Of a stretch of DNA of 64,000 bases, positions 8,196-47,004 are shown in pieces. The notes beneath the pieces are model-generated. The model did no database searches. It was given only the letters and a program-made list of their open reading frames with translations, and was not told where the DNA came from. Positions within the stretch are counted from its first letter, which is position 1, and each line of letters opens with the position of its first letter. Origin of the DNA: Candidatus Omnitrophota bacterium (GTDB taxonomy: Bacteria; Omnitrophota; Gorgyraeia; Zapsychrales; Zapsychraceae); contig JAJDCB010000024.1 of assembly GCA_029261065.1 (NCBI GenBank), positions 12,129-76,128 on the forward strand, written 5' to 3'. Made by a program: the position numbers and the translations under genes.

Positions 8196-10121
8196 TTAAA
8201 GGTTTTGGATCTTCTTTTTTAATGTGTCGATTTGTTTTTGTTGTTTTTCAATGAGTTCTTTACGTCGTTCGATTTCATCGTTTTGATCCTGAACGACCTT
8301 TGTCAGGAGGGCCGTGATTTCAAGAGGACTTAAGCTTGAGCGATCTTGCGTGGCGATTAAATCAGGGACGTCTTCAGCGATAAATCCGATATTGGGTTGT
8401 TCTGGATTTTGCTTGTATAGAAAGGTAACAGGTTCTAAATTGTCTAAAGCGGCGTGAGCCCTTTTGGAATCAAGCGGGGTGATGTCTCTTTTATATTTTC
8501 GCGAACTAATACTCTGCCAAGTTAAGCCATCACTATAAGCACCATTAGCTGAGCCAACGATAAATAATCTGTCTGGGTCCTCTTCGCGTATGCCAACGTT
8601 ACCATTCGTATCAATCGTTAAATAATCATTACTCATATTTTCAGGGTTAAAACCATGACCTGTTGAAGTGCCATAACTAAAAGAAAAACGGTCATCAGCG
8701 GCCCCGCCGCTCCCGTTACCATAGTGGTTTATAAACCAATGATTATTTTGAGCAGTACCATTTATTGTTGCCGACATCATAATATGTGAGGAATTCCTGT
8801 TGTTATCTCTCACATTAAGTTGTAAGACTCCTACTTCCGCTTCTATGATTATTGATTCTATTCGGTTAGGGAGACGAGTTAGATAATCGACTCCGGTAAG
8901 TTCTTGGGTATCCACATGTAGGACCGCTGTGGTGCCTACGCTTCCAATGCCTAGAGTGTCTTTTTGTAAGTTAAAAACTTCAGTTCCACTTAAAGGATCA
9001 TCATCGTCTGCAAAAATTCTAAAGGCATTGTTGGAAGCGGTAAGGGCAAAGGTTCCACCAGTGGTGTCAATGAGTTCCATAAGGGGATCTGTTCCTTGCA
9101 TATCAATTGTTCCCCATCCTCCAACATGAAGTTCATAATTCGGTTTAACGATGCCTCCAAATCCGAAGAGGGCAAGATTTTGACCTGGTGGATCCCAATA
9201 ATTCATTACCACAGCTGTGTTTTCACTGCCTTCTTTTCCTCCGATTAGGGTAAAAGAATTTTTATCCGAGTTATAATTATCGTGAGCAGAAAGAGTCCAG
9301 TTTGTATGATCAGAACCAACAGAATCATACTCTCTGAGTTTTAAAGAAGTCACGCCGTCATCATTTGCAATATGGAGTTCTGATAGTGGTGGGTTAGGCG
9401 CATCAAATGAACCAAATCCGATTTGGCGTGTGCTTTTTATGGTCATACGATGTTGTTCGGGGCGCCACCACCACTCTGGGTCTGAAAATTTGTCATTATA
9501 TTTTAGAAAAAATGCATCATCGTCTGTCGTTAGACGTCCAAAGAGCCACATATTTGTGAATTGGCCGCTACCATCGACTTCTGTAAAATGAAATTGTGAC
9601 TCAGCCGCACTATGTCTTGGGGCAATTAAATTTAAGAGATTATCACTGTGTGACATCAATAGTTGACCATCAAAGGCTGTATCTCCATAGAGAGCACCAC
9701 TCGGCCAATCAACCGTGAAATTATCATCATGAATATGAAGAATAGCCTTGGGAGCAGATGTGCCTATTCCAAGTTTCATTGGTGTTGAAGAGGATGTTTT
9801 AGTAGGAAAAAGAATATTTCCATTTTGTGTCCATGTGCCTGGAATAGGTCCCCAAATGCCGACATTGGCACCATTATTACCACAGAAACGCAATAGCCCT
9901 GTCACACTATCGACAAAGAGCTCTCCGATCTGACAGTTTGCTGATTGCGTCCGTGGAATCAAGCGGAGTTGATCAAATTGTGCGCTTGGCGTTGAATGAA
10001 AAGAGCTGAGGTTTAAGGTATGTTTGGTCTCTGTATTGGTTAACGCGCTATTAGCATCAACTAAGAATACACCTTGCGTAGAAATCAGGATGATAAGCAT
10101 GATCATGACATTTCTTATCAT
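8196..10121 (-). CDS. Secreted tail-fibre-domain protein paralog 1: signal peptide, GxGT..P...LH(V/I) beta-helix-type repeats, C-terminal peptidase S74-like intramolecular chaperone domain and coiled-coil tail
   Basis: 641 aa. N-terminal hydrophobic signal. Repeats such as KLGIGTSAPKAILHIHD, NYELHVGG and TAVLHVDT. C-terminus SSRKYKRDITPL...NIGFIAEDVPDLIA...ITALLTKVVQ matches the phage endosialidase/tail-fibre chaperone domain, including a Ser-x4-Lys dyad. Confidence 0.75.
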   Translation of the reverse strand: MIRNVMIMLIILISTQGVFLVDANSALTNTETKHTLNLSSFHSTPSAQFDQLRLIPRTQSANCQIGELFVDSVTGLLRFCGNNGANVGIWGPIPGTWTQNGNILFPTKTSSSTPMKLGIGTSAPKAILHIHDDNFTVDWPSGALYGDTAFDGQLLMSHSDNLLNLIAPRHSAAESQFHFTEVDGSGQFTNMWLFGRLTTDDDAFFLKYNDKFSDPEWWWRPEQHRMTIKSTRQIGFGSFDAPNPPLSELHIANDDGVTSLKLREYDSVGSDHTNWTLSAHDNYNSDKNSFTLIGGKEGSENTAVVMNYWDPPGQNLALFGFGGIVKPNYELHVGGWGTIDMQGTDPLMELIDTTGGTFALTASNNAFRIFADDDDPLSGTEVFNLQKDTLGIGSVGTTAVLHVDTQELTGVDYLTRLPNRIESIIIEAEVGVLQLNVRDNNRNSSHIMMSATINGTAQNNHWFINHYGNGSGGAADDRFSFSYGTSTGHGFNPENMSNDYLTIDTNGNVGIREEDPDRLFIVGSANGAYSDGLTWQSISSRKYKRDITPLDSKRAHAALDNLEPVTFLYKQNPEQPNIGFIAEDVPDLIATQDRSSLSPLEITALLTKVVQDQNDEIERRKELIEKQQKQIDTLKKKIQNL

Positions 10122-12058
10122 AGAGCACCTCGATTCTCAATGGTATTGAGCATCTTCTGGATGTCATGCAATTTTTGTTGTTGTCCTTGCATAAATTCTT
10201 GCTGTTTGTCTAACTCGTGTTTTTGATGTTGCATGACCTTTGTTAACAGAGCAACAATATCCATGGCACTTAAACCTTTATGATCTTTTTGAGAGAGTAA
10301 GTCGGGTACATCTTCAGCAATAAACCCTGCCCTCTTGTTGTTATCCTTTGTTTTATAATTAAAGGTGACAGGGGCAAGGTGTTTAAAGGCGGTTAGGGCC
10401 TCTGTCAGATCAAGGTCCTCAATATTTGTCTTAGATTCGCGGCTAGAAACGTCTTTCCACTCTCCTGCACTTGTGACATGTGCGCCGCCAGCAAATGAGA
10501 GCGGGTGGTTATTAGGTCTTTGTCCAATAGCAACGGATTCAAAAGTTAGAGTTGGGTCAAAGCTTATTATGGTATTAGTCATATCATCTGGATTTAACTC
10601 ATTACCAGGATCTAGATTTTTATATGCTATAGAGAACAAATTATTTTGGTACGGCGGCGTGAAGGATAAAGTGGTATCATACCAATAATTCATACTCCAG
10701 TGTTGACTCCAGTCGTTTACATCTTTTCCGGAGGAAAGGAAGATATGGTTTGTCCAGGACGTAGAGCGGTGACTGATCATGTGTAAAGCTACGTTGTCAT
10801 TGTTTTCAATTAATATGCCATCGTGGATTGTTAAGTCACTTCTTCGGGGACTCCTGCCTACATCCAATTTTTTCCTTGGAAGGTTATGGTTCCGATTATT
10901 CGTTAATCCATCTGCGGTCAAACGCATCAAAATATTAGAGGGTGAATGGTCCTTAAGACGAAATGTCAGGTCATCCTCATTTGCCCCAGTAATTAAAAAA
11001 GCGTCATCGCCACTACTTCCAAATAGGTTTATTGTAAAACTTCTATCTATTAATTTCAATGAAGCTAATCCCCCAACGCTGAGTTGAGATCTAAAGATTC
11101 CGTTTCCTAATAGCGTCTGGCCATTTTCATTTATTGTGAGGCGTTCAGCCAGTGGTCCACCGGCATCTCCCCCATAAATAGAAAATCCATGCGGGATTGG
11201 ACTTGAATCTCCATAAGCCCGAAGTTCCCAGTGCGCGAAATTGCTGTCTGACAATTCCATGAGAGTCACAGCTGTTGTTTCATCGTTTCCACTAACCGTT
11301 AATTCGTCTGTAAGAGACCCCAAATAAGGCCCAAATCCAGCCTCACCATTAGGTTGTATCTTAAAACGGATATTACTATCATCATAAGCTGGGACAGCTG
11401 GATTTGAAAGAGCGCTGTAACCAATATAAAAATCTCCTCCACTCGCGGTGGGTAAGCGACCTGTTTCCCATCTGTTAGTATAATCACCTGTTATGGGTGC
11501 TACTTCGGAAAATTTTATGGCTGAGTGTGTTCCGCTTGAACTAGACATGATATTAAAACCGACGTCTTCATTAATAACTGTTGCTTCTCCGGTAAGAAAA
11601 TCAAATCCTCCAATGAGGCCGCTTGTCCAATCGACATTAACGTTTCCATGAATTTGAAGTTTTGTGTTTGGTGTTATTGTTCCTATGCCAATATTAAGGT
11701 TGGGTACTGGGTTTGAAAGAAAATCTGAAGGAAACACAATAGGGTCTCCTGCGCCGTCATCCGTTTGCGTCCACACCCCGGGAATTAGAGACCACGTTCC
11801 AGCAATACAATATTGGATCAGATCTGAATCATCGACAGAAAAATCTCCTGTAGCGCAGGATGGCGGGCTTCCTCCCCAGTAATTTGGGTTGAGTTTTAGT
11901 TGGTCATAGGCGCCAATAGGAGCAGGTAGATATGTTGTGAGAGTCACGGTCTCAGCCCACAGCTGTCCTCCACCCATTCCAAAAATAATTAAGATGGGCA
12001 AAAATAGATGTTTTATTCGCTTTAAGTTATCGCCAAAGGCGATTTTTTTGTTGTACAT
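10118..12058 (-). CDS. Secreted tail-fibre-domain protein paralog 2 (same architecture as paralog 1)
   Basis: 646 aa. Signal peptide. Conserved N-domain (YLPAPIGAYDQLKLNP ... C.TG ... YC ... W..IPGVWTQ). Repeat LNIGIGTITPNTKLQIHG. C-terminus SSRESKTNIEDL...RAGFIAEDVPDLL...IVALLTKVMQ plus coiled coil. ATGA overlap with paralog 1. Confidence 0.75.
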   Translation of the reverse strand: MYNKKIAFGDNLKRIKHLFLPILIIFGMGGGQLWAETVTLTTYLPAPIGAYDQLKLNPNYWGGSPPSCATGDFSVDDSDLIQYCIAGTWSLIPGVWTQTDDGAGDPIVFPSDFLSNPVPNLNIGIGTITPNTKLQIHGNVNVDWTSGLIGGFDFLTGEATVINEDVGFNIMSSSSGTHSAIKFSEVAPITGDYTNRWETGRLPTASGGDFYIGYSALSNPAVPAYDDSNIRFKIQPNGEAGFGPYLGSLTDELTVSGNDETTAVTLMELSDSNFAHWELRAYGDSSPIPHGFSIYGGDAGGPLAERLTINENGQTLLGNGIFRSQLSVGGLASLKLIDRSFTINLFGSSGDDAFLITGANEDDLTFRLKDHSPSNILMRLTADGLTNNRNHNLPRKKLDVGRSPRRSDLTIHDGILIENNDNVALHMISHRSTSWTNHIFLSSGKDVNDWSQHWSMNYWYDTTLSFTPPYQNNLFSIAYKNLDPGNELNPDDMTNTIISFDPTLTFESVAIGQRPNNHPLSFAGGAHVTSAGEWKDVSSRESKTNIEDLDLTEALTAFKHLAPVTFNYKTKDNNKRAGFIAEDVPDLLSQKDHKGLSAMDIVALLTKVMQHQKHELDKQQEFMQGQQQKLHDIQKMLNTIENRGAL

Positions 12059-12061
12059 GGG

Positions 12062-14017
12062 CTATAACCCTTCATTCCATTTTTTTAGATCATTTAAGAG
12101 TCTATCGATATCTTCTGCTTGTTTTTCAAGCGCATTATTTTGTTGTCCTATTGTATGTTCGTGTTGCTGCATGACCTTGGTTAAGACGGCTGTGATGTCC
12201 ATCGGCGTTAATGTTTTTCGGTCTTCGGAGGCTACCAATTCAGGGACATCTTCAGCAATAAAACCAATTCGAGGATCATCGGGATCCACCTTGTAATAAA
12301 ATTGGACTGGTTCAATGTCTTTAATAACCGCGAACGCTTCTTGTTCTGATAAAGGATAAATATTATTTTTGGATTCACGAGAAGAGACATTTACAAATGT
12401 TGTTCCGGTACAATGGGCTCCTGGCAAAGCTGGATTGCTTGGATTTTTTAACTCTAGAAGGTGTGCTGGGTTTCTCCTACCAATACCGACATTACCGTTT
12501 GCTTGGAGGACTAGATATTCGGGATCTGCTGTCGTAACATCAAAAGCGCCATTTGCTCTTTTATAGTGAATAGCAAAATCATGATTTCGGTCTGGACCAA
12601 AATGACTGATAATCCAATGTTTACTGTCCTGAGCGGGTGAATTAGGGGTTGAGGAAAGGACGATATGAGACATTGTCGTATCGGCATTCTCTCCAATAAT
12701 TTGTAACATCGAATCATGCGATTGAAAAATAAAGCCGTCAGCATTAGAATAATTGACATCTGTATGCAGGCCAAACTCTGTCTGGATGTGAAGATATGTT
12801 TCTGGGACTTGCAATCCCATACCAATATTCCCATCATCTCTTAAAATAAATGCCGGGGGCCAGGAAAAACTGAAATGACTAATTGGGGCTTCTTCGATCG
12901 CTAATAAACCATCTAGTTTACGGATGTTATAATCTTTGAATCCAGGGTCTTGATCGATAAAAGCAATGCCGACATCACCAAAAACTTCATTTTGGAGTAA
13001 TATGGACCCGTCTCCTCCTAATTCGAGTTGGCTTGAAGGGTTTTCCGTATTCAATCCAATTTTTCCATCAGGGAGAATAGTCATGCGCGTTTTACACGTC
13101 GCACCTGCATCCAAACATGTTCCATCAGGTGACTCTCCACCGTAAATATGAAACTTATTATCATCTTGAGACTGGAATTCAAAAACCGTTTTTCCATCGG
13201 CTGTTGTTTCTTCTTCTAGCCTTATGGCGACTGATGTGTCATCACTTTGAATATGGAGTTCAGAAAGGGGTCTACTAGGATCTCCGGCATTTTGGTCAAA
13301 TGCGCCTAGGGCCGTTTTGCCATCAGGTTCTATCATAAGAATGCGATTCTTGATTTCCCAAAATTCAGAATTAACAGTATCTGAGTAAGCAATCGAAAAT
13401 GTTCCAAAATCACTGGTGGTTCCATTGCGATTGATTGACCAAGTATTTTGATATAGCCCAGAAATATCAGTAGTTTCTGTCAGAAGAATAGATGACGCTA
13501 GTCCGGGAGCATCTTCAGCCACCATAACAAGAGAGGCATTGGGTGCGGCAAGGACAAGTTGACCCCCAAAAGAATAGTTGACATTAGCTGTGGTGTCAAA
13601 GTTTAAGCCATCTACAAGGTGTAAAGAAACGGAATCATCCAGATCAGGCACGTTTTCGATATTGATGCCAACGTGGACGTCTGGAAAAAGAGCGGTATCT
13701 GAAAGAAAAATATCATCTCCATTTTGCGACCATACACTTGGAAAGTTACTCCACGTTTGTGAGAGGTCACAATATTGGGGAACGTTTAAGGCATTGACAT
13801 ACACTGTTCCTGTTTGACAAGGTACAGCCAAATCATTTTGAGGTAACAAATTGAACGTGTTGAAGGTGCCGTAAGGGGTGGGAAAATAGGAATTAAGTTT
13901 AAATTCCTCAGCAAAGGCCAAATGGGATAGATTACAAACAATGAGCAGCAGGCTCAAGCAGATAGGAGAACGCTTAAGTATCTTACCTAATAGCTTTGGT
14001 TTCATGGCTTTATGCAC
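12062..14017 (-). CDS. Secreted tail-fibre-domain protein paralog 3 (same architecture)
   Basis: 651 aa. Signal peptide. N-domain (YFPTPYGTFNTFNLLP ... PCQTG ... YC ... W..FPSVWSQ). Repeats GKIGLNTENPSSQLELGG, GNIGMGLQVPETYLHIQT and GNVGIGRRNPAHLLEL. C-terminus SSRESKNNIYPL...RIGFIAEDVPELVA...ITAVLTKVMQ plus coiled coil. Confidence 0.75.
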   Translation of the reverse strand: MHKAMKPKLLGKILKRSPICLSLLLIVCNLSHLAFAEEFKLNSYFPTPYGTFNTFNLLPQNDLAVPCQTGTVYVNALNVPQYCDLSQTWSNFPSVWSQNGDDIFLSDTALFPDVHVGINIENVPDLDDSVSLHLVDGLNFDTTANVNYSFGGQLVLAAPNASLVMVAEDAPGLASSILLTETTDISGLYQNTWSINRNGTTSDFGTFSIAYSDTVNSEFWEIKNRILMIEPDGKTALGAFDQNAGDPSRPLSELHIQSDDTSVAIRLEEETTADGKTVFEFQSQDDNKFHIYGGESPDGTCLDAGATCKTRMTILPDGKIGLNTENPSSQLELGGDGSILLQNEVFGDVGIAFIDQDPGFKDYNIRKLDGLLAIEEAPISHFSFSWPPAFILRDDGNIGMGLQVPETYLHIQTEFGLHTDVNYSNADGFIFQSHDSMLQIIGENADTTMSHIVLSSTPNSPAQDSKHWIISHFGPDRNHDFAIHYKRANGAFDVTTADPEYLVLQANGNVGIGRRNPAHLLELKNPSNPALPGAHCTGTTFVNVSSRESKNNIYPLSEQEAFAVIKDIEPVQFYYKVDPDDPRIGFIAEDVPELVASEDRKTLTPMDITAVLTKVMQQHEHTIGQQNNALEKQAEDIDRLLNDLKKWNEGL

Positions 14018-23242: not shown

Positions 23243-25117
23243 TTGAGATATAAATTTAAAGAGAATATTATTATGGTTGTCAAAATTCACTCCTTTCATA
23301 TCCCTGTTATGGGTTCGGCTTTCTCTATTGATACGCCGATCAAGGTAGCTCAATACGGTATATCCTCTGTTATTTCTTTAGTGGATGATGCTCTTATTGA
23401 ACAAATGCGCCAACATTATGCCAAAATGGTCGGTGAAGAGTATACGCCCATTACGAAATATGATGAAGATTTTCGAGCGCAACGCATTAAAGAATATCTG
23501 AATCTAGTTCATCGCATCGTTAAACAAAAGTTTGAAAAAGTCAAAAATTCTTCCTTTGAAACGGGTAGCGAAATTGTTAAATATTTTGAATCTCTGCCTG
23601 AAAATTCTATTCTTAAAGCACAATATTTAAAAATGTTAGACGTAACTGATCCAAAATTGAAAGCGGTCTTACAAGAAAGACTTCGTAACGAAATGCAGCC
23701 AGGTAGTATTGATGTTAATATTATGACAAAACTGGATAAAACGAATTATGCAAAGGATCGAACAGAACTTCCTTCTGAGTATTCAGATGCCCTTGCGGCT
23801 CTTCGCGGTTATGCGGAAAGTTCTCTGGATTCGGCGATAGTTTTCTCCGCGGGTATTAACCGTCGTCTTTATAGTTATGTTGAAAAATTTAAAGATTTTT
23901 ATGCCGATGCCACAGGTCATATCAAGAAAAAAATTATATTAAAGGTAAGTGATTATCGGTCCTCTTATATTCAAGGTCGATTTTTCGCTAAAAAGGGTTT
24001 GTGGGTCTCTGAATACCGTATTGAATCAGGTCTTAATTGTGGAGGCCATGCCTTCGCCTCTGATGGTTATCTTATGGGGCCGATGTTAGATGAATTTAGA
24101 CGACGCAAAGACGAATTATGTACAACTCTTTACAAAATTTATAATGATGCTTTAAAAGCTAAGAATAAAGACACTTTTGATCAACCTCATGCTTTAAAGG
24201 TTACGGCTCAGGGTGGTATTGGGACGGCCAAAGAAAATAACTTCTTAATGAATTATTTTCAAATTGATGGTACAGGCTGGGCGACACCCTTTTTACTTGT
24301 TCCTGAGGTTACTAATGTCGATGGGCCGACACTTGAAAAATTATCCGAAGCCACTCAAAAAGAATTGTATTTAAGTGATGTCTCCCCTTTAGGAGTGCCT
24401 TTTAATAACATAAAAGGAAGTTTTAGTGATACCGAAAAAGAACGTAAAGCTACGACAGACAAGCCTGGTAGTCCTTGTCCAAAAGGGCATTTGATTTCTA
24501 ATACAGAGTTTACAAAAATACCTATCTGTACGGCTTCAAGGCAATATCAGAAACTAAAATTTGATCAACTCAAAGCCATGAATTTATCAAAGGCTGCTTT
24601 TGATGAGAAATATACGCAGATGACAAAAAAGGCCTGTATTTGTAATGACTTGGGTGAGGCGGCTTTAATCAAAAACGATATTGATCAAAAACCAAATATC
24701 AAACGGTTTTCAGCAATATGCCCTGGTCCAAATTTAGCTTATTTTACGAAAGTGACTTCTTTTAGTGAGATGGTGAGTCATATCTATGGTCGAATGAATC
24801 TATTGAATAATACCTATCGACCCAATATGTTTATTAATGAATTAAAGATGTATATCGATTATTTTAAAAAGGAAGTTCAAAAAATAGCTATTGAGCCAAC
24901 AGAAAAACAAGTTAAGTATTTAAATGAATTTAAAATAAATATGTTAGAGGGTATTGATTTTTATAAAGAGTTTTTTCCAAGGATGGTAGAGGAAACTCAA
25001 GACTATCGTAATCGGGCGTTAACAGAACTGAACAGCTATAAAAAGAAACTAGAAGAGTTTCTTTCCGAACACTCCAACATCTTCTCAAACTCTCTTCCAC
25101 CGATGCTCGTTGTGTAA
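23243..25117 (+). CDS. Large hypothetical protein with a divergent NMO/FabK-like FMN TIM-barrel N-terminal half plus a unique C-terminal ~250 aa
   Basis: 624 aa. PVMGSAFS...AQYGISSVISL (cf. PIIQAPMAGVS...AVSNAGGLG), NCGGHAF (cf. EAGGH) and TAQGGIGT...TGWATPFLLVPE (cf. AAGGI...MGTRFL..ES) are colinear with nitronate monooxygenase / enoyl-ACP reductase FabK family motifs. Divergently transcribed from bioB. Possible alternative start at 23273. Confidence 0.4.
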   Translation: MRYKFKENIIMVVKIHSFHIPVMGSAFSIDTPIKVAQYGISSVISLVDDALIEQMRQHYAKMVGEEYTPITKYDEDFRAQRIKEYLNLVHRIVKQKFEKVKNSSFETGSEIVKYFESLPENSILKAQYLKMLDVTDPKLKAVLQERLRNEMQPGSIDVNIMTKLDKTNYAKDRTELPSEYSDALAALRGYAESSLDSAIVFSAGINRRLYSYVEKFKDFYADATGHIKKKIILKVSDYRSSYIQGRFFAKKGLWVSEYRIESGLNCGGHAFASDGYLMGPMLDEFRRRKDELCTTLYKIYNDALKAKNKDTFDQPHALKVTAQGGIGTAKENNFLMNYFQIDGTGWATPFLLVPEVTNVDGPTLEKLSEATQKELYLSDVSPLGVPFNNIKGSFSDTEKERKATTDKPGSPCPKGHLISNTEFTKIPICTASRQYQKLKFDQLKAMNLSKAAFDEKYTQMTKKACICNDLGEAALIKNDIDQKPNIKRFSAICPGPNLAYFTKVTSFSEMVSHIYGRMNLLNNTYRPNMFINELKMYIDYFKKEVQKIAIEPTEKQVKYLNEFKINMLEGIDFYKEFFPRMVEETQDYRNRALTELNSYKKKLEEFLSEHSNIFSNSLPPMLVV

Positions 25118-28342: not shown

Positions 28343-29770
28343 CTAACGCAAATTAACAGTTTGACCATCCGCAATACTTCCAACAACAAAAGGACCAAAG
28401 TTTAATCTTGCGGATTGGCCGTCTGCTGTGACATCAATGCTAATATCAAAACTCGTGCCATTAGCTGTTCCGGCAGGTATATCTAGATCCATATCTGAAG
28501 CGTTATCGGTTTGTGTGGTTCCTCCTGGTGGGGCATTGCTAAGAGTTGCATCTGTATTATGCGTAAAACTCCAGCCATTGGATACCTGCGCATTGCTATA
28601 GCTTATACCCGTGGAGGTGACTGTTCCTAAATTTACTAAAAGAAAATCGATCTCAAAACCATCCCCTGCTTGTACGAAACCATCACCATTGACATCCAGA
28701 CAACCAGAACAATTCACCCCTGGAAAACGTGTGGCGAGTTGAATATTAGTTAAGTTGCCTAAAACATTTTTACTATCTGAACTTTTCTCAACAACAATAT
28801 TAAAATTTCTTTCAACACGATCCAATAAGAGATCTTTTAAATCAATTTTTGGATAAGCTGTTTTTGAAAATTTGATCTCTTCGAGAATATCAGCAGGTTT
28901 CAAACTATTAATAGCAAATTTAAATCGCGCATCAACGCGATAATTCGTTTCTGCTAATTCATTATTAAAGGCTTGAAGGTTGATTGTAAATATATCTTTG
29001 GCTGATATTTCGGCTCGATGTGTCCAAGTTCTTAAATCCTCTGAATTTTTAAAATAATATCGTGTAAACCCTTCATATAATTTCAACCATGGTGCGTAAG
29101 GAACCCTCCCCCCAAGCTCAAGATCGAAACCATCAGCAGCCTCTTCATAGAAATTATTAAAAAACGTTTTTTTAACTAACTTTCTTCCAGAGTGGGCATT
29201 ATAAAGATTAAGGCGTCCTTCAATATTGTCACTTAACACCTCAAATCCAAGGCCTGTACGATAATGTATATTTAGGGATTGATAGTCAAAAAATCCATTA
29301 ATACCAAGGATCCATTCTTCATCCATGACAAGTCGTCGATAGCCAAGACCAACACTTCCCTTAAACTCACCATCGCCCTCACTAGAAACACGATCATGTG
29401 TAAATACGGTATGCCTTTTGTCAGTTGACTGATATATCGGCAGGACGGTTTCTATATAGTATTGCGGATGAGGGTTCACGGTATCATCATAGATAAGACC
29501 AAAATCGACATGCTTGAGAATTAAATCCAACCACTCTTCAGGATCGTCTGGTCTATATTTTTGTGTTGTATCCTCTTCATCGACATAGATCGGCTCTAAT
29601 TCTAAATATAACTGCTTGGCTTCATATTTTTCTATTTCATCAAGCTCATTGTTTATGATGTTATGACGTCGTTTTTGATATCTTTGATTGAATTCCGCTG
29701 AAGAGAAGGAATATTCGAAGAGAAATATACTAAAGATGATAATAATAGCGCAGTTTAATTTAGTTTGCAT
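28343..29770 (-). CDS. Inverse autotransporter-like outer-membrane protein (intimin/invasin-type beta-barrel with short C-terminal Ig-like passenger)
   Basis: 475 aa; signal peptide. Central region LGINGFFDYQSLNIHYRTGLGFEVL...RLNLYNAHSG...GFDLELGGRVPYAPWLKLYEGFTRYYF resembles the intimin/invasin beta-domain. Gly/Thr/Asp-rich C-terminus. Confidence 0.5.
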   Translation of the reverse strand: MQTKLNCAIIIIFSIFLFEYSFSSAEFNQRYQKRRHNIINNELDEIEKYEAKQLYLELEPIYVDEEDTTQKYRPDDPEEWLDLILKHVDFGLIYDDTVNPHPQYYIETVLPIYQSTDKRHTVFTHDRVSSEGDGEFKGSVGLGYRRLVMDEEWILGINGFFDYQSLNIHYRTGLGFEVLSDNIEGRLNLYNAHSGRKLVKKTFFNNFYEEAADGFDLELGGRVPYAPWLKLYEGFTRYYFKNSEDLRTWTHRAEISAKDIFTINLQAFNNELAETNYRVDARFKFAINSLKPADILEEIKFSKTAYPKIDLKDLLLDRVERNFNIVVEKSSDSKNVLGNLTNIQLATRFPGVNCSGCLDVNGDGFVQAGDGFEIDFLLVNLGTVTSTGISYSNAQVSNGWSFTHNTDATLSNAPPGGTTQTDNASDMDLDIPAGTANGTSFDISIDVTADGQSARLNFGPFVVGSIADGQTVNLR

Positions 29771-35623: not shown

Positions 35624-36769
35624 TTATTCTGTGTTAAGTCGTTGCCCTTTTTGATCATATTCTTTTGTTGCGACTAGTTTACCATTTTTATAAATCCATT
35701 CAACTCTAATATCTCCATTTTCATAAAACTCTTTTGTGGGGCCATCTTGAACGTCGTCTTTGTAATGATAAATGGCCTTACATTCCCCACTTTCTAAATA
35801 TTCCGTACTCGCCCCATTTAGCTTATCATTGCAATAATTCTTTTCATAATGCAGCTTTCCATCATCATAATATTCTTTGGTTAAACCATTTAATTCATTA
35901 TTTTTATACTGCCATTCCATTTTTAGAGTTCCATTTTCTAAAAATTCTTTAGATAGCCCATTTAATTGATCAGTATCATAGGTGCGTTGGTAGTGTAGTT
36001 GACTATTTAGAAAATATTCATTTGATAGTCCGCTAAGTTGGTTATTTTTGTAGTTCCAGCTAAACAAAAGATTATTAGATTGATCAAATTCGCGGGCCTC
36101 GCCTTCAAGGGTATCATTTTGATAGGGCCATTCGATAATTTTTTTCTCCTCTATTCTAAATTCTTTGGAGGATCCATTTAAAAATCCCTTTTCATAGTTC
36201 CATTGATATATTAAATTATTGTTATCATCATATTCTTCTGTAACGCCATGTTGTTCCATATTCAGATAATGTTTTTTAAAAATAACGGTTCCATTTTCTC
36301 TAAATTCTGTATGCATCCCATCTTTAAGCCTATCATTCTCAAAATGCCATTGATGAATAAGGTTTCCTTGTTTATCAAATTCTTGAGATAAGCCTTCAAG
36401 CTTTTCGTTTACATAATGACGTTCATAATGTAGCCCACCTTCTTCATAAAATTCTTTATGCACGCCATCTATGATCCTCCCTTTTTGAAAAGACCATTCC
36501 ATATGGAGATGTCCGCTTGGGTAGAAATCTTTGTGGGTGCCATCTGTAAGATTACCGTCTTTATAGAGCCTTTCTGAGCGTAGAGCTCCGTCTTCGTAAT
36601 ATGCTTTAAGAAGTCCTTCCATGTAATCATCTTTATATGGTTTTTCTTCTCTTATTTGGCCGCTTTTATAGAATTCCGTATAAACACCTTCTTTTTTACC
36701 ATAAAGTTCGTGCCACTGGGCTTTAAGCTCTCCAGAATCATAAAAAATCTTTTTTAAGGCGTGTTTCAT
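35624..36769 (-). CDS. MORN-repeat protein (YwqK-like)
   Basis: 381 aa composed almost entirely of ~23-aa repeats, e.g. G.HKEFYENG.L..E..Y.N.KLDG, repeated more than 12 times. No signal peptide. Confidence 0.8.
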   Translation of the reverse strand: MKHALKKIFYDSGELKAQWHELYGKKEGVYTEFYKSGQIREEKPYKDDYMEGLLKAYYEDGALRSERLYKDGNLTDGTHKDFYPSGHLHMEWSFQKGRIIDGVHKEFYEEGGLHYERHYVNEKLEGLSQEFDKQGNLIHQWHFENDRLKDGMHTEFRENGTVIFKKHYLNMEQHGVTEEYDDNNNLIYQWNYEKGFLNGSSKEFRIEEKKIIEWPYQNDTLEGEAREFDQSNNLLFSWNYKNNQLSGLSNEYFLNSQLHYQRTYDTDQLNGLSKEFLENGTLKMEWQYKNNELNGLTKEYYDDGKLHYEKNYCNDKLNGASTEYLESGECKAIYHYKDDVQDGPTKEFYENGDIRVEWIYKNGKLVATKEYDQKGQRLNTE

Positions 36770-45555: not shown

Positions 45556-47004
45556 CTAAAAAGCCGATGGATACAATAATTCTATTAAGGTTTGGTCGCC
45601 AAAATATTTGTAATCTCGATTACCTGGATCCGTCAATAGTTGACTAAAGTCTAAAGAGTCATAAGTTGAATTGTGTCGTGACTGTTCTATGTGAGCGATG
45701 AGCCGGGCCGAGGGTTGATCGAAAACGGCTCTTTTTTGTAAGATTCCATAGTCTATCCAGCCATAACAGAGAGTTAAGATTAGACAATTTATTGCAATAA
45801 TTTTATTTGATAGAGACCAATTGGGAAAGGGATTTATCTGGTCATGGGCAATGAGTATATATATAGCTGTCATCATGAAGGCCCAATAAAAGTAGGCCCA
45901 GTATAAGGTTTGTTTGAGATAGCTTAGGCTGCGTGGGCCGACGCGAAAAATGGAGAATAAAAAACATAGCAAAAGAATTAGGCTAATAAATAGAAAAAAC
46001 AAATTTTTTAGCCCTGTTTCCCCTTTCATCAATGTTCGACTTTTTTTTAGAACTAAGAAACCCTTGATAATGAGAATGATGTTTAAGATAGTTAAAGGAT
46101 TAAATTGAGTAATAATTTTAAACGAAAAACGTTCTGCTAAGAAACAAAATTGATTTTGAAAAGGGAAAATCCCTAAGTTAAGCCATCGAAGAAAGACACA
46201 GGGGATGTTGCCTAAGCCTTTTGTCAAAAATTTTCCTTTAATGGCATAGCCTTGCTGACTAGAAAGACTTGAATAATAATTTGCGAACCAGTTGATACCA
46301 TTAAACGCCATAAACACAAGAATGGGGACAAAAAGCATAACAAGCCATTTCTTTCCTTCTCTATTTTGTGGCCAGGTTGCCCAAAGATAAAGGATCAACC
46401 CCAATATTATAAACACGCTAAATTCGCAAAACAAACAGGCCATTGTCAGCATAACGCTGTTGGTGACAATCATCTTTTTTAACGTTATGTGTTGGCGTAC
46501 AAATAAAAAACAATTCCGAATGGCCAAAAATACGAATATAAGCGATACAAGATAGCCATTGATATTTGTCCAGATGACCAAGTCCAAATTAACGGGCATA
46601 ACCGAGAACATCGCTGTAAATAAAAGCGCTAACCAACTCTCCTTGATGCTGGTTAAGAGTCGCCATAAGACCCACAAAAATATCAAATGAAATCCAATTC
46701 CAACTAATTGCCAAAGATGAAAAGAATAGCCGAACAAAAAGCGCTCTGTTCCTAAGAGAGCATACAAAAAAGGACGAAAAAGCCAAGTATCACCAGAGGA
46801 GATATATGTGCCGCGATTTAAGTCCATATTTTTTAGCACTAAGGATGAGAAATTTGTTTGATCAGCGACTGTAGATAGATAAGCGATTTGATCACTACGG
46901 GGAATGTGTTTTAAAGAAGGCCAAAAAACAATAAGATTAAATATACAAATCAGAGCGAAAAAAAAGTATGTATTAAAGATCTTCTTGTTTGTTTGATTCA
47001 TCAT
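45556..47004 (-). CDS. Polytopic integral membrane protein (>=10 predicted TM), possible GT-C-type glycosyltransferase or polysaccharide-export component
   Basis: 482 aa, very hydrophobic and aromatic-rich. No soluble domain recognised. Same strand, immediately downstream of the FemAB-like/deacetylase pair. Confidence 0.4.
   Translation of the reverse strand: MMNQTNKKIFNTYFFFALICIFNLIVFWPSLKHIPRSDQIAYLSTVADQTNFSSLVLKNMDLNRGTYISSGDTWLFRPFLYALLGTERFLFGYSFHLWQLVGIGFHLIFLWVLWRLLTSIKESWLALLFTAMFSVMPVNLDLVIWTNINGYLVSLIFVFLAIRNCFLFVRQHITLKKMIVTNSVMLTMACLFCEFSVFIILGLILYLWATWPQNREGKKWLVMLFVPILVFMAFNGINWFANYYSSLSSQQGYAIKGKFLTKGLGNIPCVFLRWLNLGIFPFQNQFCFLAERFSFKIITQFNPLTILNIILIIKGFLVLKKSRTLMKGETGLKNLFFLFISLILLLCFLFSIFRVGPRSLSYLKQTLYWAYFYWAFMMTAIYILIAHDQINPFPNWSLSNKIIAINCLILTLCYGWIDYGILQKRAVFDQPSARLIAHIEQSRHNSTYDSLDFSQLLTDPGNRDYKYFGDQTLIELLYPSAF

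Follow-up and report, generated by a model that had tools for sequence, protein, structure and literature searches.

Three tandem, probably exported fibre-like proteins of an Omnitrophota bacterium end in S74 intramolecular chaperone domains with an intact Ser-Lys dyad

What are genes that end like those of phage tail fibres doing inside a bacterial menaquinone cluster, and could their products cut themselves? The question is raised by three tandem genes, here called P3, P2 and P1 and together the trio, in a 64,000-nucleotide stretch of DNA from a Candidatus Omnitrophota bacterium (GenBank assembly GCA_029261065.1, contig JAJDCB010000024.1, positions 12,129 to 76,128 of the forward strand), the whole of which is referred to below as the window. 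Their open reading frames (ORFs) lie as follows, in window coordinates:

12062-14017, minus strand: P3, first gene of the trio, 651 amino acids (aa) from the GTG at 14017 or 647 aa from the ATG at 14005
10118-12058, minus strand: P2, second gene of the trio, 646 aa
8196-10121, minus strand: P1, third gene of the trio, 641 aa

The reading that we favour, to which we assign a probability of roughly 0.8, is that the three products are Sec-exported, fibre- or adhesin-like proteins whose S74 tails chaperone the folding of a trimer and then cleave themselves off. As part of this reading, the trio are proposed to be co-transcribed and translationally coupled genes of the bacterial chromosome. Each chain of ~645 aa would consist of a signal peptide, an N-terminal module of ~100 aa, an acidic, all-beta body of ~400 aa, and an S74 domain of 103-109 aa.

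The first-pass annotation of this DNA had noted three shared motifs (SSRKYK/SSRESK/SSRESK, GFIAEDVP[DE]L, and A[LV]LTKV[VM]Q) in the C-termini of all three paralogs, and exactly these strings were present in the translations, within the last 103-109 residues. In P1 they occupied aa 539-544 (SSRKYK), 579-588 (GFIAEDVPDL), and 604-611 (ALLTKVVQ); in P2, aa 538-543 (SSRESK), 578-587 (GFIAEDVPDL), and 603-610 (ALLTKVMQ). P3 carried SSRESK at aa 545-550 (counted from GTG 14017; 541-546 from ATG 14005), followed by GFIAEDVPEL and AVLTKVMQ. The distance from the Ser to the C-terminus was 103, 109 and 107 residues in P1, P2 and P3, respectively, in agreement with the ~100 aa that had been expected for a cleaved-off tail. 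The range originally drawn for P1 (8196-8520) also held, including as it does the stop codon and four upstream residues; those for P2 and P3 ended 5-7 nucleotides (nt) short of the Ser codon and are corrected in the list of tail features:

8199-8507, minus strand: P1 S74 domain, aa 539-641, with predicted release (Pfam, alignments to PDB sequences, structure prediction and structural search)
8505-8507, minus strand: P1 Ser539 codon, predicted nucleophile, with the predicted scissile bond at I538/S539 (Pfam model position 1; aligned to the nucleophile position of 8hqz, 8jov and 7dc3)
8490-8492, minus strand: P1 Lys544 codon, predicted general base (aligned to the catalytic Lys)
8364-8387, minus strand: P1 GFIAEDVP core, aa 579-586 (near-invariant in 61 relatives)
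8289-8312, minus strand: P1 ALLTKVVQ, start of the long C-terminal helix, a predicted trimeric coiled coil (modelled helix, aa 599-640)
8562-8597, minus strand: P1 pre-S74 loop VGIREEDPDRLF, aa 509-520 (fits the V-G-G/N-pi-x-x-P-x-x-x-L capping-loop pattern)
10121-10447, minus strand: P2 S74 domain, aa 538-646 (Pfam, alignment)
10445-10447, 10430-10432 and 10304-10327, minus strand: P2 Ser538 codon, Lys543 codon, and GFIAEDVP
12065-12385, minus strand: P3 S74 domain, 107 aa (Pfam, alignment)
12383-12385, 12368-12370 and 12242-12265, minus strand: P3 Ser545 codon, Lys550 codon, and GFIAEDVP
12455-12490, minus strand: P3 pre-S74 loop VGIGRRNPAHLL, just beyond the range of the S74 domain

The tails were identified by their match to the Pfam family Peptidase_S74 (PF13884, 'chaperone of endosialidase'), with scores of 33.3, 38.1 and 32.1 bits (E-values of 6e-8, 1.9e-9 and 1.4e-7) for P1, P2 and P3, where the curated gathering cut-off is 22 bits. 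The match spanned model positions 1-53 of 58 (aa 539-588 in P1), and in all three proteins model position 1 fell on the first Ser of SSR. The same family is listed for the trio proteins in a public collection; NCBIfam yielded no match to any of the three. Identity among the paralogs was 45-47% in the C-terminal domain versus 27-28% in the body and, together with PF13884 scores of 32-38 bits against the cut-off of 22, this argues that the occurrence of the motif is not due to chance.

Whether the Ser and Lys occupy catalytic positions was the point on which the earlier proposal of autoproteolysis turned. In searches of PDB sequences, made with the proteins and with a tail profile built from 12 sequences, SSRxxK aligned with three segments: SGIEYK in 8hqz, a T5-like L-shaped tail fibre; SDERLK in 8jov, the tail fibre of a phage; and ADLRAK in 7dc3, the S587A mutant of MyRF. 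Like the Pfam model, these alignments placed both residues on the catalytic positions. MyRF cleavage requires both S587 and K592, the equivalents of S911 and K916 in endoNF (PMC8326128). Two further MyRF residues that flank the cleavage centre, Y615 and Y617, matched the conserved F567 and Y569 of P1. Among 61 diverged relatives that we aligned, S539 was conserved in 60 (the remaining one having Cys), while S540 and K544 were conserved in all 61. G579, A582, E583, V585, and P586 were likewise invariant, and family members with the canonical SDxxLK aligned in register with SSRxxK. The tails of P1, P2 and P3 are thus S74 intramolecular chaperone domains with an intact, correctly placed dyad. Of the residues first described as hallmarks of the endosialidase and tail-fibre chaperone, the dyad deserves the name; GFIAEDVP instead forms a structural core conserved within this S74 subtype and is not a catalytic hallmark.

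The predicted fold led to the same family. An AlphaFold2 model of P1 aa 469-641 (predicted local distance difference test score, pLDDT, of 76.5) contained a short helix (model residues 84-92), a beta-hairpin (97-101 and 104-111) and a terminal helix of 42 residues (131-172, aa 599-640 of P1). By inspection, this helix has a heptad pattern with Gln at d positions. When the tail model was compared with the PDB using Foldseek, the ICA domain of MyRF (7dc3) ranked first, with a probability of 0.97-0.99, followed by the endoNF CIMCD (3gw6) and Bd3182 of Bdellovibrio. The viral model library BFVD returned 100 matches to the tail at E<=1e-3; among the 50 of these that were listed, the named entries were S74, 'intramolecular chaperone auto-processing', or tail-fibre and tail proteins. 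The full-length model of P1 was of moderate confidence (pLDDT 66) and had an all-beta body. Its best match in the PDB was a fibre of the mosaic adhesive trimeric (MAT) type from Bdellovibrio, Bd2133 (8ond, E-value 6e-5), and the next were the T4 long tail fibre gp34 and further MAT fibres (8oml, 8onf). Capping-loop motifs, of a kind described for Bd3182 and MyRF (PMC10769870), occurred in all three bodies: LGIGTSAPKAIL and VGIREEDPDRLF in P1, IGIGTITPNTKL in P2, and three in P3. A pre-S74 loop lay 19-24 residues ahead of the Ser in P1 and P3.

Of known systems, the S74 subgroup of the MAT fibres of Bdellovibrio bacteriovorus, for example Bd3182 (PMC10769870), comes closest. In MAT fibres, a signal peptide precedes an invariant, beta-rich N-domain of ~130 aa, and the body is trimeric and beta-helical, with capping loops of the pattern V-G-G/N-pi-x-x-P-x-x-x-L; 13 of the 21 members end in S74 (PMC10769870). 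The S74 domain of Bd3182, a cellular fibre that bears a signal peptide, cleaves itself at S782, and the S782A substitution blocks cleavage (PMC10769870). MAT fibres and the trio have in common that they are chromosomal, non-phage paralogs with a signal peptide, a conserved N-terminal part, a beta-rich body, capping loops, and an S74 C-terminus. They differ in size (~1,000 aa in MAT fibres, ~645 aa in the trio), in the motif (SDxxxK versus SSRxxK), and in gene arrangement, the trio forming a compact operon of three within the men cluster; nor does anything mark the host of the trio as a predator. The trio module of ~100 aa, for which there is no Pfam match, is a candidate counterpart of the N-domain of ~130 aa.

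By analogy with endoNF, T5 pb1, MyRF, and Bd3182, the family members from which the steps are drawn, three chains of the trio would associate through their S74 domains, each trimer being held by a 'donut' of beta-hairpins and a coiled coil of three helices. The S74 trimer would then nucleate folding of the trimeric beta-structure upstream of it. Once the trimer had folded, Lys544 (Lys543 in P2, Lys550 in P3) would activate Ser539 (Ser538, Ser545), and the chain would be cut immediately N-terminal to this Ser. The mature fibre would retain ~500 residues per chain, the last ~105, coiled coil included, having been removed. The invariance of Ser540 itself leaves two placements of the scissile bond, I538/S539 or S539/S540.

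Several observations weigh against this reading. In the trio the motif is S-S-R-x-x-K and not the canonical S-D-x-x-x-K, such that the residue after the nucleophile is Ser, with Ser540 invariant where the canonical Asp would stand. Solved structures gave weak sequence matches (E-values of 0.001-0.5), and the Foldseek E-values of the tail against the PDB were 2e-3 or worse; we attribute the latter to the extended shape of a monomer model of what is an obligate trimer. P2 has a degenerate form of the pre-S74 loop motif. An upstream 'sensor' Arg, which in endoNF (R897) and T5 (R1250) couples folding to cleavage, was not located in the trio, where the search for it relied on a monomer model. Phage S74 domains, moreover, act in the cytoplasm, and in the trio both folding and cleavage would have to follow export through Sec. 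The phage domains themselves share several features with the tails: the endoNF CIMCD (phage K1F, 3GW6) and the T5 pb1 L-shaped fibre (4UW8) share with the trio the family PF13884, the Ser-x4-Lys register, and a C-terminal domain of ~100-130 aa ending in a trimeric coiled coil, which in the trio is predicted. Identity to them is ~15-30%, the trio differ in being cellular and Sec-exported, and their beta-hairpin 'tentacles' appear shorter than those of T5 (domain of 103-109 aa versus 133 aa). The ICA domain of MyRF (7DC3), the best structural match to the tail, keeps the dyad and the two aromatics, but MyRF is a eukaryotic transcription factor of the endoplasmic reticulum membrane, with the domain in an internal position and an unrelated function.

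The Ser at the second motif position, the missing sensor Arg and the degenerate P2 loop would also fit a domain that trimerises without cutting. Under that explanation S74 would be a permanent C-terminal trimerisation module, uncleaved, with the coiled coil staying on the mature fibre, and MyRF does show that the coupling of stalk and cleavage varies among S74 proteins (PMC8326128). We consider this unlikely. Essential invariance of both Ser and Lys across 61 diverged relatives is hard to explain without catalysis, and an Asp after the Ser is not obligatory, given that the T5-like fibre has S-G and T5 cleaves (dyad S1264/K1269; PMC4690869). Among the top 147 cluster representatives of the family, 118 had SS and only six SD. 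The cellular fibre of Bdellovibrio, too, does cleave (PMC10769870). Self-removal of the tail after trimer folding therefore remains the reading that we prefer.

If the trio are exported, their N-termini should say so. By inspection, each protein starts with a Sec-type signal peptide, with cleavage sites at AFA/EE, LWA/ET, and VDA/NS. P2 required a correction in this respect: the deposited protein (P0001) has 619 aa, starts at an internal Met, and is without a signal peptide. The ATG at 12058 is preceded by the Shine-Dalgarno (SD)-like sequence GAAGGG, and a start there restores the signal peptide (window 11978-12058), as in all relatives; the deposited start is probably wrong. Behind the signal peptide, alignments delimited a shared N-terminal module in each protein:

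9732-10022, minus strand: N-terminal module of P1, ~aa 34-130
~11651-11953, minus strand: N-terminal module of P2
~13613-13909, minus strand: N-terminal module of P3

The module, of ~100 residues, has the consensus LTTYYPAPxGxYDxLRLxP..C.IG..Y....C....W....W.Q...GIGTxxP, in which two Cys, two Trp, and the GIGTxxP motif are conserved. It had no Pfam match but is shared by many metagenomic proteins, where it heads proteins both with and without an S74 tail in arrays of one to four genes; two of these loci (L089 and L090) contained four such genes in a row, none with S74. The module is probably the cell-proximal anchor of a protein that would be displayed at the surface. From its motif to the catalytic Ser, the three trio proteins span 496, 499 and 502 aa. 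The distance is 501-532 aa in relatives with central bodies of unrelated sequence, made of YadA-head-like SGxYSxIxGGxxNxA repeats. These repeats were found only in relatives of the Omnitrophota type. Near-constancy of this length suggests a constraint on the length of the fibre. Trimeric autotransporter adhesins were considered as an assignment for the trio and rejected: the C-terminus is S74, and there was no match to YadA_anchor, the 12-stranded beta-barrel anchor.

Are these bacterial genes or stranded phage genes? All on the minus strand, the genes between 3851 and 17932 of the window run ubiE/menG-menF-menD-[P3-P2-P1]-menB-menA-menC-menE, such that the trio interrupt an otherwise contiguous menaquinone cluster, with menD on one side and menB on the other. 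The ATG of P1 overlaps the stop codon of P2 as ATGA, a gap of 3 nt separates P3 from P2, and these overlapping or abutting junctions carry SD-like sequences. A scan for promoters and terminators gave scores no better than those of shuffled sequence, with no convincing candidate between the trio and the men genes. The rest of the window is of a housekeeping character (aconitase, cytochrome oxidase I, IlvD, chorismate synthase), and Rfam gave no matches in it.

A decaying prophage remnant, with tail-fibre genes that have no cellular function, would account for the matches of the trio to PHROGs tail-fibre families and for a GC content slightly above that of the flanks (the window as a whole has 37.8% GC). 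The PHROGs families, however, match mainly the C-terminal part of the trio proteins, mostly where the profile ends; no other phage genes accompany the trio, the flanks being men genes of the same strand; and all three ORFs are intact and encode signal peptides, for which a phage fibre has no use. In metagenome-assembled genomes (MAGs), the same N-terminal module recurs in housekeeping contexts, its triplets being flanked by genes for SMC, an enoyl reductase, GlgC, and RecO. The distribution of the tail points the same way. A scan of genomes confirmed more than 540 loci in many bacterial phyla, while IMG/VR gave three close and about 60 distant matches, and matches in cultured phages reached only 25-33% identity. 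From these counts, the SSRxxK subtype of S74 is mainly cellular. A prophage origin of this kind is very improbable, and the trio are not phage genes.

How widely, then, is the trio itself distributed? At a threshold of E<=1e-3, an exhaustive profile search recovered 18,359 cluster representatives, and 1,076 remained at E<=1e-30; the majority of matches were confined to the last ~145 residues. Word-indexed searches, with P2 and with an alignment of 18 sequences, found almost nothing beyond the proteins of the window itself. Even core proteins of the window, such as aconitase and MenB, were singletons at 90% identity in a collection of 15 billion proteins, which indicates that the lineage is sparsely sampled. 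Full-length relatives were present at six of the genome loci, and all six consisted of three tandem, tightly abutting genes (coordinates are those of each locus):

L002, 4489-10373: triplet in an Omnitrophota MAG
L005, 2432-8475: triplet in an Omnitrophota MAG
L019, 3927-9810: triplet in a MAG labelled Planctomycetales
L065, 4498-10627: triplet in a MAG labelled Planctomycetales
L045, 2683-7323: triplet in a MAG labelled Planctomycetales, its third gene truncated where the contig stops
L053, 919-7215: triplet in a MAG labelled Planctomycetales, the second gene split into two overlapping ORFs

Genes of these triplets clustered by position (g1, g2, g3) and not by genome, from which we conclude that the triplication is ancient and its order conserved. 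Elsewhere, a JGI contig with a body of the window type (L081) had at least three tandem copies, and another locus (L120) a shorter triplet.

The constancy of three raises the possibility that P1, P2 and P3 co-assemble as a heterotrimeric fibre, one chain of each, which would explain why exactly three genes are kept. The positionally orthologous 1:1:1 triplets at all six loci speak for it, as do L120 and L081, the tight coupling of the genes, and the matched lengths from N-terminal motif to Ser. Yet in characterised S74 proteins the trimer is described as symmetric and built from one kind of chain (PMC10769870, PMC4690869, PMC8326128), and in our census of metagenomes the family also occurred as single genes, in pairs, and in rows of four, with S74 missing from some members. 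Hidden Markov models of the g1, g2 and g3 orthogroups did not place the window trio one-to-one, and the tandem genes of L081 gave no clear correspondence either. The C-terminal helices lack charge complementarity, and many indels separate the bodies of the paralogs. On balance we hold such co-assembly, for which these tests gave no support, to be improbable, and we are just as sceptical of its broader form, in which the new N-terminal module, the SSRxxK-type S74 and three retained positional orthologues would define an undescribed class of surface-fibre operon in Omnitrophota and Planctomycetales-like genomes, the chains co-assembling as a heterotrimer or a three-fibre complex. Were the chains to co-assemble, they would provide the first case of an S74-chaperoned fibre that is heteromeric. 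We continue to favour separate, S74-chaperoned fibres that release their own tails, with a probable adhesive role.

The domain call is in itself routine, as any Pfam scan would annotate S74, and cellular fibres that terminate in S74 are already known. The wider implication is that the phage chaperone that folds, checks, and then cuts is widely used by cellular bacteria for exported fibres, for which experimental demonstration in cellular bacterial fibres has so far come only from Bdellovibrio. What stands out here is the conserved three-gene arrangement in relatives, together with the uncharacterised N-terminal module. Studies of attachment to other cells, in lineages that are little known and possibly dependent on a host, could be guided by these two features.

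Other genes of the window gave minor observations. Two ORFs, at 23243-25117 on the plus strand (624 aa) and at 45556-47004 on the minus strand (482 aa), had no Pfam match at the thresholds used. The minus-strand gene at 35624-36769 encodes a protein of 381 aa built of MORN_2 repeats (E-value 8e-43). Finally, the minus-strand gene at 28343-29770 encodes a protein of 475 aa with an inverse-autotransporter beta-domain (PF11924, E-value 4e-21) and a C-terminal passenger without assignment; it is likely another surface adhesin, and its presence in the window indicates that the host is a diderm bacterium.

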